Assembly: GCA_023920165.1 (NCBI GenBank)
Contig: CP089279.1
Location: 1,054,001 to 1,118,000, forward strand
From: Curvularia clavata
Lineage: Eukaryota
Length of the DNA: 64,000 nucleotides
Reading direction: 5' to 3'
Position 1 is the stretch's first letter; the number at the start of each line of letters is the position of its first letter. This document shows positions 2,030 to 53,447 of this stretch, one piece after another. The translations under genes and the position numbers were made by a program. The notes beneath the pieces were generated by a model. That model saw nothing but the letters and a program-made list of their open reading frames with translations. It ran no database searches and had not been told where the DNA came from.

Positions 2030-3571
2030 CTAATCCACACCTCCAACCAAGTACTCTCCCACTTCTAGATTTACCGTGCGCCCAAGAGCCCTTGCATATT
2101 CCCACCCGAAATTCACCCTCCACCTAGCCCCTGCCTCTAATGCATCGTTTGAGGCTGCACCCCCCGCGCGCACGAGCAAACGCATGCTTGTGAGCGTCGC
2201 AATCTGTGTGTACAGATCTGCCACCTGGGGCACTGTTCCGTCCAGCAGAGCGCGAAAAATAGCAAGTAGACGGTCCAGAGTGAAGGGGCTGGGTGTCAAG
2301 AGATGCCGACTGATTTTGCGGTGCTTGGAGCCAGAGCGTTTGCCGGTTACACTGAAGGAAGAGATAGCTGGGGCGCGCCGCTTGTTCTTCCGCTTGTCGG
2401 TATGCTTCATGAAATATGTTACGTCTGTGCGAGCAGGATTGTACGAAGCTAGGTATGCGGCAATGAGGATGTGAGTGGTGAAATACGGTAGAGTATGAGC
2501 GGTCATGTTTGCTAGTTTCTTTTTGCTAGGAGTAGCTGGAGTAATAGCATCATTGGTAGTGGGATTGGCGACGCTGTCGGCAGATATGATGCGGTCGAGG
2601 ACTGAATCTTCGAGCTGGAACAGGTGGCGCCGGTTCACCATCAAACGGGAAAAGTCGCGCGTACCGAATTGACCCGAGAGTATAGGTTCGACGAAAGGTC
2701 GCCATAGTCGCATTGCGCAGCTTTTGAAGCTGACGAGGTCTCGACCAGTGTGTTTTGCAAGGGAGTCGTACACAGCTTGTAAGAAGCGGCCCCAGAGCCA
2801 TGCATCGTCCTCGGCAGCAAGATCCGGGGTATAATCAGGAAAATTTTCGAGAGATGGTGGATCAATGAAGATTTTCGGTGGGTTGGCACCTAGGATTGTA
2901 AGAAGTTCGGTGCGTGTATAAGATGGGAAATGAAGGAACAGCGTGGAGGCGGAGTGGAGGACGGAGGGCGCAAGTGGCAGCGTTGTAGACAGGATGATGG
3001 AAAGATTGGGTATCTTTGAGACTTGGTCAGTACTGAATTCTTGTGCTCATATAGCCAGAAGCCTACCGATTCTCCCAGTCGTCCCAGCGCAGCGATCAAT
3101 GTTCCTCCTCCTTCGCGCAGTTTATCCATGCCATCCAGCACCAGAACAAACTTCCCCCTCCCTTCTAAGATCTTGCCCATATTTACGCATAGTGCGCTCA
3201 GGTTTTCTGTTCGTGCATATGGTCTCCTGTCCGTCTTCTCGTCGTGGAACTCATCAAGCGCATCGAGACTAGATGCGACGATGCGCTCAACGAGATGGCG
3301 TGTTGTTATACATTCGCGGACATTGATGATGACATGCCATGCGCAAGACAGGTGGAAATAGGAGCGTAGGATCGAGGATTTTCCAGTTGCAGTCAGGCCG
3401 TGGATGTTAAGGAAGGGAGGAGACGGAAGATGGGCCTGTTGTTGATTAGCATTGTGCATACTGGGGATGGGGAATTGATCGCACGCTATAGAGAGCTGCG
3501 AGACTCTGTATCTGGTGATGACGGCATTGGAATTCAGCGTCAAGCTGTGCAATGATTTCGTCGGGCAACAT
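2030..3571 (-). CDS. ORC5: Origin recognition complex subunit 5 (two introns)
   Basis: ATG at 3571 (MLPDEIIAQLDAEFQCRHHQIQSLAALYS). Walker A GLTATGKS, Walker B-like VLVLDGMDKL, and C-terminal LIAAYLASYNPARTD..F and PSPFTLDRLLAIF typical of ORC5. Confidence 0.92.
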
Positions 3572-20468: not shown

Positions 20469-20550
20469 GCTTGAGTGGCCAAGTGGTAAGGCGTCGCACT
20501 TGTATTAACTTGCAATGCGAAGATCCATGGTTCGACTCCGTGCTTGAGCA
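20469..20550 (+). tRNA. tRNA-Thr(UGU) with a 10-nt intron (20505-20514)
   Basis: Acceptor GCTTGAG/CTTGAGC+A; D arm GCC-AAGTGGTAA-GGC; anticodon stem TCGCA/TGCGA with loop CT-TGT-A^A; T arm CATGG-TTCGACT-CCGTG; downstream T-run Pol III terminator. Confidence 0.92.
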
Positions 20551-51435: not shown

Positions 51436-53447
51436 CTAAGCAGCAGGCTGGACACCGAGGTCGGCACCACCACGACCACGGGGAGCGCCTCGGCCGCGAT
51501 AACCAGATCCACGCCCACCACGTCCACGGCCTCGACCACGGCCACGTCCACGGTAGCCATCAACACTGCCCTGGCCGAAAGTTTCCATGTTCTTCTGGCG
51601 CTCTTGGCTACGGAACTCTTGACCACGCGCGGCTGCTTCTTCTCTGTCCTTGAGTTCACTCGAGATGTTGTCAAAGAAAGAGCTCTTGTCATACATTGAG
51701 CCGCTGGGGATGATGACTTCTTCCTTGTCAGCAGATGCATCCGCTGCAGTAGCCGCGCCCTCACCAAGGGGCGAACCGGAGGCGATGGCCTCCTTGATCA
51801 AATCTTGCTTGTTGAACTTGGCATTTGCGGATTCGAAATCAAAGTCAGTTGTAGGAACCTCCATCTTCGGGTGTTGTGAATGAAGGCCGCCTCGGCCTCC
51901 CCTTCCACCCCTGCCACGGAACTCGCCAGTACCTCTTTGGCGTGGTGCATGTTGGCGGCTCTGGTCGCGCATGCCCTCAACCTTCTGGGCTAGATTGTTT
52001 GTGGGATCCGAAGCAGGTGCTTGACCTTGAGGCAGGCCCTGAGCTTGTGCTTTGTTTTGGAGGTTGAGCTTTGCCATAGCCTCAGCCACAGCGGCAGTCG
52101 CCAACTGCGTAGCGTTCTGCTGTTGAGCAGCGCTAGGAACCTGGGCAGTGGCAACAGCAGCGGCGGCTTGCTGGTGCGTATGGGGCGCTGTCTTGTTAGC
52201 TCTTGGGCTTGGAATAGGGACAGCAGGGATGATCCGTCCACCCTTTGGCCCACCAGGTGCACCCCTCCCTGTAGCAGGCTGTTGGGTGTTCTGAGGTTGA
52301 GGCGGCGCTAGCGCAGCCGATACATCGGGCTTGCTCTCGACAGGCGGTGGGGGAGCCTGCTTCGCACCAACAGGCGTAGGAGTAACGCCAGAAGCCTTCG
52401 CACCATTCTTGGGCTGTGGCTTGGCCGGCGCACCGTCTGCCTCTGCAACCTTTGGCTGTTGTGCTTGACCAGACTTATCATCCTTGCCAGCCTGGGGTCC
52501 TGATGGACCTCGGGGACCCTGTGGAGGCTGGTTCTGGTTCAAGCCGGGAGGACCAATGGGCATGTTTGGTGAGAATGGCCCTGGAGGTTGATGGAAGCCT
52601 TGGCCAGGCGGGAACCAGCCAGGGGGCGCTCCGAACGGAGGCATGCCAAATGCGCCTGGCGGACCACCGGGAGGGAAAGGACCTGGGCCACCAGGGAATC
52701 CACCCTGGGGACCAAAGCGGTTACCATATGGACCTCCTGGGCCACCAAAAGGTGGGTAGCCCCCAGGAGGGAACTGACCAGGCTGAGGGAAGTTCTGAGG
52801 TTGCTGTTGATGTCCCGATACGTCTTGCGGACTGCTTTCTTGTCGCGCCTGAGTTTGCTGTACCTGTGGCGCATGCGTCGCGTCAGCTTTGGGCTCAAAG
52901 AGAGAATTGAGAAAAAGCAGTTTGTACGTAAGGGTCTCAGAAGGAAGGCAACGGAAAATATCCACACGGTTTTGCGCTCTCGGTGGTTTTTTTGATTTAC
53001 ATCCGAAAATTTTACATCACCGGAAAGGGGGAAGGGAAGAAAATAGCGTAGACTTACTCCGATGATGGCGGGGTCCTGTGGCATGGCAGGCTGTGCCTTT
53101 TCCTTGACTGGTTCCTCAATGCGCAAATCCTTCACGTCACTGCCTCGGAAGACAATCTGCTCGTATACGACGTCTGACGGAGGGTACTCATCCTTGCCAC
53201 CCTTGCGACCCTCTGTGCCAAAAGATCGCACATTGTCTAATGAGACTGTGGAGGCTTCTGAGTTAATCTCGACGAGCGTACCGACATAGCTATGGCGGGT
53301 CAATGGCTGCAAGAACCCACCATTGACTGGGTACTAACCGAATGTCGCTTTTTGAGATGAGGGAAATGCGAGATCTACGCGTCGCGGGTCAGCTGAAGCT
53401 CGAGACGAATTGGGCGCAGCCGCGACTTACCCGATGAACTCGGACAT
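51436..53447 (-). CDS. SCD6: LSM14/Scd6/Sum2 P-body translational repressor; three introns
   Basis: Lsm domain MSEFIG^SRISLISKSDI^RYVGTL..SFGTEGR..FRGSDVKDL; FDF (DFDFESANAKF), FFD (SSFFDNIS) and TFG (NMETFG) motifs; RGG boxes. Confidence 0.95.
52937..53020 (-). ncRNA. Intronic box C/D snoRNA, snR52-like (guide for 18S Am420, yeast numbering)
   Basis: Lies in the 194-nt SCD6 intron (52864-53057). Box C GTGATGT at 53020-53014, box D CTGA at 52940-52937, preceded by GTTGCCTTCCTT, which is complementary to conserved 18S AAGGAAGGCAGC (one G.U). Confidence 0.85.

Follow-up and report, generated by a model that had tools for sequence, protein, structure and literature searches.

The closest described relatives of the locus reported here are fungal and animal box C/D snoRNAs of the snR52/U83 type. 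In N. crassa, where 45 of 55 C/D snoRNAs are intronic, CD42 is given as an intronic RNA with a single D guide that targets 18S-Am417, as a homologue of snR52 and U83, and with the experimental codes N and R, its expression having been shown (PMC2780460). The snR52 of S. pombe lies on chromosome I and is described as sharing homology with yeast snR52 in the 3' guide alone (PMC4138321), and snR52 and snR56 have been united in clan CD_19 via target switches (PMC5824354). The alignment in PMC3116282 has a U2921 guide (L2921) in budding-yeast rows only; in its supplement, a row labelled 'Abra' (Alternaria) is near-identical to the snoRNA described below, and Aspergillus-type rows carry S1428 guides. 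An intronic, single-guide snR52, which the original prediction implied to be surprising, is already published: Table 1 of PMC2780460 has it for N. crassa and the supplement of PMC4138321 for S. pombe. The present snoRNA is a member of a known and already modelled family, for which both the proposed GGAUGU pairing and the single-guide state are in print. All of these papers are cited for their accessible portions.

We analysed a window of 64,000 nt from Curvularia clavata, the features of which are collected in Table 1. When the whole window was scanned against Rfam, two matches exceeded their cut-offs, a tRNA and RF00335 (snoZ13_snr52), the latter covering positions 52926-53029 of the minus strand at 75.8 bits (gathering cut-off 47, E 3e-13) over model positions 1-101 of 101; this match is single in the whole genome. 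The family assignment expected from covariance models therefore held at the level of RF00335, but not for the budding-yeast snR52 model RF01195 (18.1 bits, cut-off 45) or U83 RF00593 (22.7 bits, cut-off 35). The tRNA gene (20469-20550, plus strand; RF00005, 54.3 bits) carries extra bases in its anticodon loop region.

Table 1. Positions in the window of the SCD6 gene and of the snoRNA elements in its third intron
Feature	Positions	Strand	Evidence or remark
SCD6/LSM14 coding exon 1	53431..53447	-	start codon at 53447; junction 53431/53374 in RNA contigs (runs X1, X5, X11)
SCD6 exon 2, 36 nt	53339..53374	-	flanking introns 56 and 49 nt; joints CT..AC on +
SCD6 exon 3, most of LSM14 (Scd6-like Sm) domain, end ...DPAIIG phase 0	53058..53289	-	Pfam PF12701 E 1.8e-23
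SCD6 intron 3, snoRNA host, 194 nt by canonical AG	52864..53057	-	sequence; branch A 52883; skipped in relatives' RNA contigs
Box C/D snoRNA core, box C to box D	52937..53020	-	84 nt; RF00335
Box C, GUGAUGU, last base variant	53014..53020	-	same variant end in L087 and L128
GGAUGU accessory element	52999..53004	-	complementary to 18S 407-412 (yeast 410-415); -8.8 kcal/mol; may pair UCC 52955-52953
D' guide region, A-rich, no credible target	52984..52997	-	variable across orthologues
Box D', CCGA	52980..52983	-	co-varies with C'
AGCGC in D'-C' loop, candidate second accessory element	52974..52978	-	-8.1 kcal/mol with 18S 400-440
Box C', GUGUGGA	52961..52967	-	co-varies with D'
D guide, 12 nt	52941..52952	-	pairs 18S 413-424, one G-U; -21.0 kcal/mol
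Box D, CUGA	52937..52940	-	54 nt upstream of branch A; orthologue median 56 nt
9 nt, in frame A-P-Q, exon in relatives' transcript contigs	52864..52872	-	preceding two bases AT here; joint 52871/53057, skips 185
SCD6 exon 4: Pro/Gln-rich linker, FDF domain, RGG tail, to stop codon	51436..52863	-	Pfam PF09532 E 1.1e-20; ORF end

The anatomy of the snoRNA agrees with what had been predicted: box C (GTGATGT) and box D (CTGA) are present, span 84 nt and have the guide directly before box D. Box C departs from RUGAUGA by one base, ending in U rather than A, and internal D' and C' boxes (CCGA and GUGUGGA) are recognisable. A metagenome scan, whose pattern required box C, then 50-80 nt, then the guide and box D, returned at least 117 loci with 123 hits; among the matches listed, 78 of the 123 hits have the fungal layout and represent 64 distinct sequences, which without L047 make up the 63 parsed below. 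All nine fungal-type loci tested pass the RF00335 cut-off. Across the 63 parsed orthologues, among the matches listed, the internal boxes co-vary, with the pairs CCGA/UGUGGA in 44, CUGA/UGUUGA in 8 and others in 11.

Target assignment used the genome's own rDNA. The guide, of a length within the 10-21 nt of antisense sequence beside D or D' that defines such elements, pairs with 18S 413-424 at 12 of 12 positions, and the D+5 nucleotide is A417 of this 18S, equivalent to yeast A420, as the original prediction had it; the CC preceding the guide pairs with 18S 426-427. The guide pattern occurs once in the window, and 3 of 100 shuffles contained a match (mean 0.03). RF00335 score and duplex together bear out the identity as a box C/D guide of snR52/U83 type for 18S A420; ribose methylation of A417 we infer from orthology. 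Very probably, then, this RNA is the filamentous-fungal orthologue of snR52/U83, a single guide that would methylate A417, derive from SCD6 pre-mRNA and make accessory contacts with 18S. Counted against this reading are the final U of box C, the capacity of GGA to form an internal stem, the 4 of 63 orthologues that break GGAUGU, the weakness of GCGC and the 19 of 64 orthologues outside SCD6.

The D' side of the snoRNA differs from that of budding yeast. The predicted lack of a guide for 25S U2921 was confirmed, GAACAATC being absent here and in all 123 motif hits among the matches listed (0/123), so that the D' guide that marks budding-yeast snR52 is missing. Where relatives have a D' guide, it is instead of the snR56 type, directed at 18S G1428 and not U2921; it abuts D' in 7 of 63 orthologues among the matches listed, and no such G1428 guide precedes D' here, as it does in snR52/snR56 double guides. 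Three double-guide copies (A420 + G1428; L019, L049, L054) sit in an intron of a host that is not SCD6 and seems to be non-coding, the one in L019 lying ~470 nt downstream of an eRF1 reading frame. Of the original alternative, 'single-guide or different D' guide', the first half stands and the second found no credible candidate: the best D'-anchored helices on 18S, 5.8S and 25S reach 6, 5 and 8 bp, the last being A/U-rich, and none is credible. It is very improbable that the D' region serves a second, unrecognised target (another rRNA, snRNA, tRNA or mRNA site). The intact and co-varying C'/D' boxes, the real G1428 guides of the seven orthologues and the 8-bp helix on 25S 3020-3027 would speak for one, but the region is A-rich and differs even between the window and its close relatives L087, L128 and L064, and 8 bp of A/U-rich helix falls below the range of 10-21 bp given in PMC2780460. 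The target scan covered 18S, 5.8S and 25S. On our preferred reading, judged from the sequence, the D' guide would be non-functional here.

Guides for the two missing sites were sought elsewhere in the genome. For U2921, the pattern GAACAATCC gave 222 hits against 150 in the control and is too short to be informative, and GAACAATCNCYGA gave 7 against 5, none in a proper C/D frame by eye and none with an Rfam match, which is weak evidence of absence. According to a review, snR52 and Spb1 redundantly deposit U2921 methylation in yeast, the review numbering the site U2918 (PMC7277114, accessible portion); by analogy with this redundancy, U2921 methylation is probably left to Spb1 alone here. A G1428 guide with a canonical D' box had no hit in the genome scan. 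A looser pattern had 17 hits, of which 6 are the rDNA itself and 1 is a plausible snoRNA (L136:1459-1539, minus strand; G000:C2 near 528191), an unannotated snR56-like box C/D RNA with a G1428 guide and a variant D' box that resembles N. crassa CD19 and scores 36.6 bits (E 0.0012) against RF01188, below the snR56 gathering score of 54. G1428 would thus be guided by this separate snoRNA.

Two further elements may contact 18S on either side of the guide duplex. The extra pairing originally proposed for an internal GGATGT is borne out as an exact complement: 18S 407-412 is the sole GGAUGU-complementary site in 18S and adjoins the guide duplex on its 5' side, and the supplement of PMC3116282 (van Nues 2011), in its accessible portion, labels the GGAUGU/18S 410-415 pairing 'S415-10 CCUACA'. 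In the yeast snoRNAs tested in the same paper, extra pairing raised methylation by as much as five-fold. Of the 63 parsed orthologues, among the matches listed, 59 have GGAUGU exactly and 4 break it, and it occurs in 114 of 20,000 spacer shuffles. The D'-C' loop has GCGC in 56 of 63 and GCGU in 7 (same set), and this element could pair with 18S 427-430 or 429-432, just 3' of the target; it offers 4 bp only, is self-complementary and has six sites in 18S (276, 427, 429, 1459, 1461, 1587). From its position, pairing just 3' of the target is probable; such pairing of GCGC or GCGU was not found in print, and the text layer of the PMC3116282 supplement holds no label for it. The counts for both elements are partly circular, because the orthologue class was defined by GGAU and GCGY; as an independent check, all 55 SCD6-hosted hits among the matches listed carry GGAU and GCGY, neither of which was demanded by the collection pattern.

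It is possible, if doubtful, that in the same snoRNA these elements are structural or protein-binding, through an internal CGGA/UCCG stem and C'/D' loop contacts, and make no rRNA pairing at all. Conservation of GGA need not mean rRNA pairing, because GGA also fits an internal stem with UCC, as in the Rfam consensus structure, which pairs CGGA with UCCG; the flanking pair is C-G in 55, U-A in 4 and U-U in 4 of 63 orthologues among the matches listed, so that four show the change from C-G to U-A, and snR52 is absent from the 24 yeast extra-pairing snoRNAs in the accessible main text of PMC3116282. Yet the UGU after GGA, conserved in 59 of 63, has no internal partner, GCGU as a variant (7/63) would still pair with rRNA GCGC via a U-G wobble, and the S415-10 label stands in the supplement of that paper. 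The same GGAUGU stands at the end of N. crassa U14 (CD37), ahead of box D, from which we infer that U14 and the snR52-type RNA would compete for 18S 407-412.

The host gene is SCD6/LSM14, a translational repressor and decapping activator. Four coding exons splice into a protein of 570 aa (573 aa with the upstream acceptor discussed below), in which an N-terminal LSM14 domain (PF12701) and a C-terminal FDF domain (PF09532) both exceed their Pfam cut-offs, and the named relatives of which are Pleosporales proteins and 'Sum2' or 'Scd6-like' proteins of other Pezizomycotina. Splicing was read from assembled contigs of public runs of near relatives (4 of 24 listed runs, 2 of the 4 only guessed to be RNA), from which RNA ends and levels are not readable. 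Three of the four runs have contigs that bridge introns 1 (56 nt), 2 (49 nt) and 3, and within intron 3 the bin 52920-53000 has zero depth in all 4; with the two domains, the skipping of intron 3 in relatives upholds SCD6 as the intron host of the snoRNA. The intron has the donor GTAAGT, the branch sequence GCTGAC (A at 52883) and the acceptor CAG, and its 5' splice site is backed by relatives' RNA contigs. Its length of 194 nt, given by the original prediction, holds for the canonical AG, but 3 of 4 runs (relatives) put the 3' end 9 nt upstream, giving 185 nt. The accompanying statement that most introns here measure 45-70 nt agrees with the RNA-backed SCD6 introns of 56 and 49 nt but not with a crude motif scan, in which 6 of 13 candidates fall in that range and 5 of 13 exceed 180 nt.

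We give almost no credence to the idea that the snoRNA segment is a coding or retained SCD6 exon in which the motif is incidental. Two of three frames are open across much of intron 3, and an in-frame, GTG-started ORF (52965-51436) does run into it as predicted; moreover, several public protein entries (P0084, P0121, P0123-P0126) contain the translated snoRNA in differing frames, 1 of 120 in a first protein search and 5 of 6 new ones in a second, so that the foreseen risk of mis-annotation is real. These entries look like intron-blind gene calls, because of their origin in ENA/JGI contigs, their run-through of introns and their different frames. Against an exon stand not only the behaviour of these proteins but also the relatives' contigs, which skip intron 3 and leave 52920-53000 at zero depth in 4/4 runs, and the stop that retention would bring after 267 aa. 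Intron 3 as a constitutive exon is contradicted by the spliced contigs of near relatives. Intron-blind gene callers, in short, translate an snR52-type snoRNA into protein.

The 3' end of the intron is less simple. Contigs of runs X1, X5 and X11 (3 of 4 runs, three studies) join exon 3 to 52872 and not to 52863; by the record coordinates, exactly 9 further bases match, and the joint can be moved by no more than one base. On this genome that acceptor would yield a 185-nt GT...AT intron and add A-P-Q in frame. The same intron end, with AT at the site, recurs in the more distant loci L087 and L128, and over the 18 nt that run from branch point to AG these loci match the window exactly, the remaining intron having diverged. 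Run X17 leaves the junction unbridged, and its one contig ending at 52863 is evidence neither way. Annotated Pleosporales proteins mostly read 'DPAIIG|VQ' (P0001, P0006, P0008, P0010, P0011), as the canonical acceptor would give; two more searches for annotated proteins of close relatives that span the junction yielded none but those of Clathrospora and other Pleosporales, which read 'G|VQQ', and a scan for the intron end in viral contigs returned none. X1, X5 and X11 share many differences from the window and therefore probably stem from one sister strain or species, and the simpler reading, still a candidate, is a single T-to-G change that would create an ordinary AG in these relatives. Use of a non-canonical AT acceptor is unlikely in our estimation; were it real, this would be among the rare non-AG 3' splice sites, a conserved one in majority use in a fungus, and could readily serve as a test case. 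Upstream splicing in relatives at the site that reads AT here was not found in print.

We regard with similar scepticism a joint reading in which a Pleosporaceae-like SCD6 intron is mainly spliced GT-AT, 10 nt after the branch point, and the snoRNA acts as a switch. The nine bases (A-P-Q) would be ancestral exon sequence that has been kept, and the choice of acceptor could be tied to snoRNP assembly; a closed GGA/UCC stem would open on the target and hold 18S 407-433 clamped to either side of A420, over the binding sites of U14 and snR87. The 18-nt branch-to-AG identity of the window, L087 and L128 would be explained thereby. In the host intron of L064, an AAG 6 nt past the branch point could serve as an acceptor, in frame and 12 nt before the usual one, and Pleosporales seem to have a shifted acceptor region when compared with the 'G|AARP' start found in other Dothideomycetes.

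Boxes and guide were expected to be conserved in orthologous SCD6 introns, and this is what we found. Among the matches listed, profile searches place 45 of the 64 distinct fungal-type orthologues inside SCD6, mostly in the same intron and in a few cases on weak matches (e.g. L018, L050, L118), and none of the 45 non-fungal-type hits is placed there. The SCD6-hosted introns that were measured (43 of 45, among the matches listed) have a median length of 202 nt (range 178-250), and in 40 of the 43 the preceding exon has a DP/PA-type end in phase 0. From donor to box C the median is 44 nt (33-86) and from box D to branch A 56 nt (35-67), among the matches listed, the window having 37 and 54; the splice signals of orthologues were picked automatically by rule, and some acceptors may be wrong. 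Divergent, intron-richer SCD6 hosts (e.g. L025, L031, L070) were taken for Basidiomycota. This placement of 45/64 orthologues, among the matches listed, was not found in print, nor was any link of snR52 to SCD6, Sum2 or LSM14 in the literature searched, in which the supplements of PMC5824354 (clan CD_19) and PMC4138321 and Mitrovich 2010 may name a host; the accessible portions of PMC8476143 and PMC9606315 do not mention snR52 or SCD6.

The SCD6 host is not obligatory, as 19 of 64 orthologues (among the matches listed) lie elsewhere, mostly also between splice signals. Copies in L015, L092 and L127 sit in an intron of an apparently different protein-coding gene; two frames of the L015 host had no match in Pfam. 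Near-identical snoRNAs are in SCD6 at one locus and in another host at others (L059 vs L069, L081, L111), and L084 has two copies in tandem, in adjacent introns of a host other than SCD6, sequence patterns that suggest duplication or relocation. The three copies of Pleurotus (PMC5040776 Table 2), of which one is intronic and two lie side by side outside genes, fit such an origin. Animal-like U83 hits (L017, L020, L023, L024, L037, L060, L072, L110) are often in tandem, and in place of the fungal CGGA/UCCG they have a complementary pair of their own, AUGG after box C and CCAU before the guide; one of them, L020, matches RF00593. The spacing also bears on whether the snoRNA might be transcribed independently, by Pol III or from an internal promoter, and merely overlap the SCD6 intron. 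S. cerevisiae snR52 is a Pol III transcript (PMC7277114, accessible portion), but the sense orientation within introns of SCD6 and non-SCD6 hosts alike, the narrow distance to the branch point and the 33-86 nt from donor to box C (among the matches listed) make this a highly improbable account.

With an SCD6 pre-mRNA origin as the preferred reading, the snoRNA would be transcribed within the host transcript, released from spliced intron 3 and trimmed to ~90 nt. Work in mammals has indicated that snoRNP assembly is favoured by a fixed distance to the branch point, and the fixed distance between box D and branch point may favour assembly here. In the snoRNP, the D guide would pair with 18S 413-424 and fibrillarin would methylate the ribose of A417. 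GGAUGU after box C, in the published proposal, would pair the six bases just 5' of the guide site, and GCGC in the D'-C' loop may pair just 3' of it; pairing on both sides would clamp ~26 nt of 18S and so help to open local structure. By the same reading, deletion, re-coding or cDNA replacement of fungal SCD6/sum2 would remove the only Am420 guide, and the resulting phenotypes could be confounded.

Set against described systems (papers again cited for their accessible portions), N. crassa CD42 shares with the present snoRNA the boxes, GGAUGU, GCGC, the D guide, the intronic location and the single target 18S Am417, but has CUGA/AUGUUGA as D'/C' in place of CCGA/GUGUGGA and lacks the final U of box C (PMC2780460). 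S. pombe snR52 (SPSNORNA.29) is likewise intronic with one target, 18S Am423, and has the same CCGA-GAGCGC-UGUGGA layout (PMC4138321). Eurotiomycete-type snR52 with an snR56 guide (clan CD_19, PMC5824354) has the same scaffold, and 4 of 7 such loci among the matches listed are in SCD6, but it is a double guide (A420 + G1428), and the present copy has no G1428 guide. Animal U83/SNORD83 (RF00593) has the same 18S target and nearly the same guide, but its model stays below cut-off here (22.7 bits against 35). S. cerevisiae snR52 (RF01195, 18.1 bits here) shares the D guide for 18S A420 and differs in being an independent Pol III transcript, in its D' guide for 25S U2921 and in having no GGAUGU; budding yeast, not the SCD6-hosted snoRNA locus, is the exception. 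The S. pombe SCD6 orthologue sum2 is presumably on chromosome II and snR52 on chromosome I, so that the S. pombe host is probably another transcript. SCD6 intron 3 joins the introns of RPL7 (snR39-59) and NOG2 (snR191) as a position-conserved intron that many fungi have kept with its snoRNA (PMC8476143); RPL7 and NOG2 act in ribosome biogenesis, whereas SCD6/LSM14 is a gene of mRNA repression.
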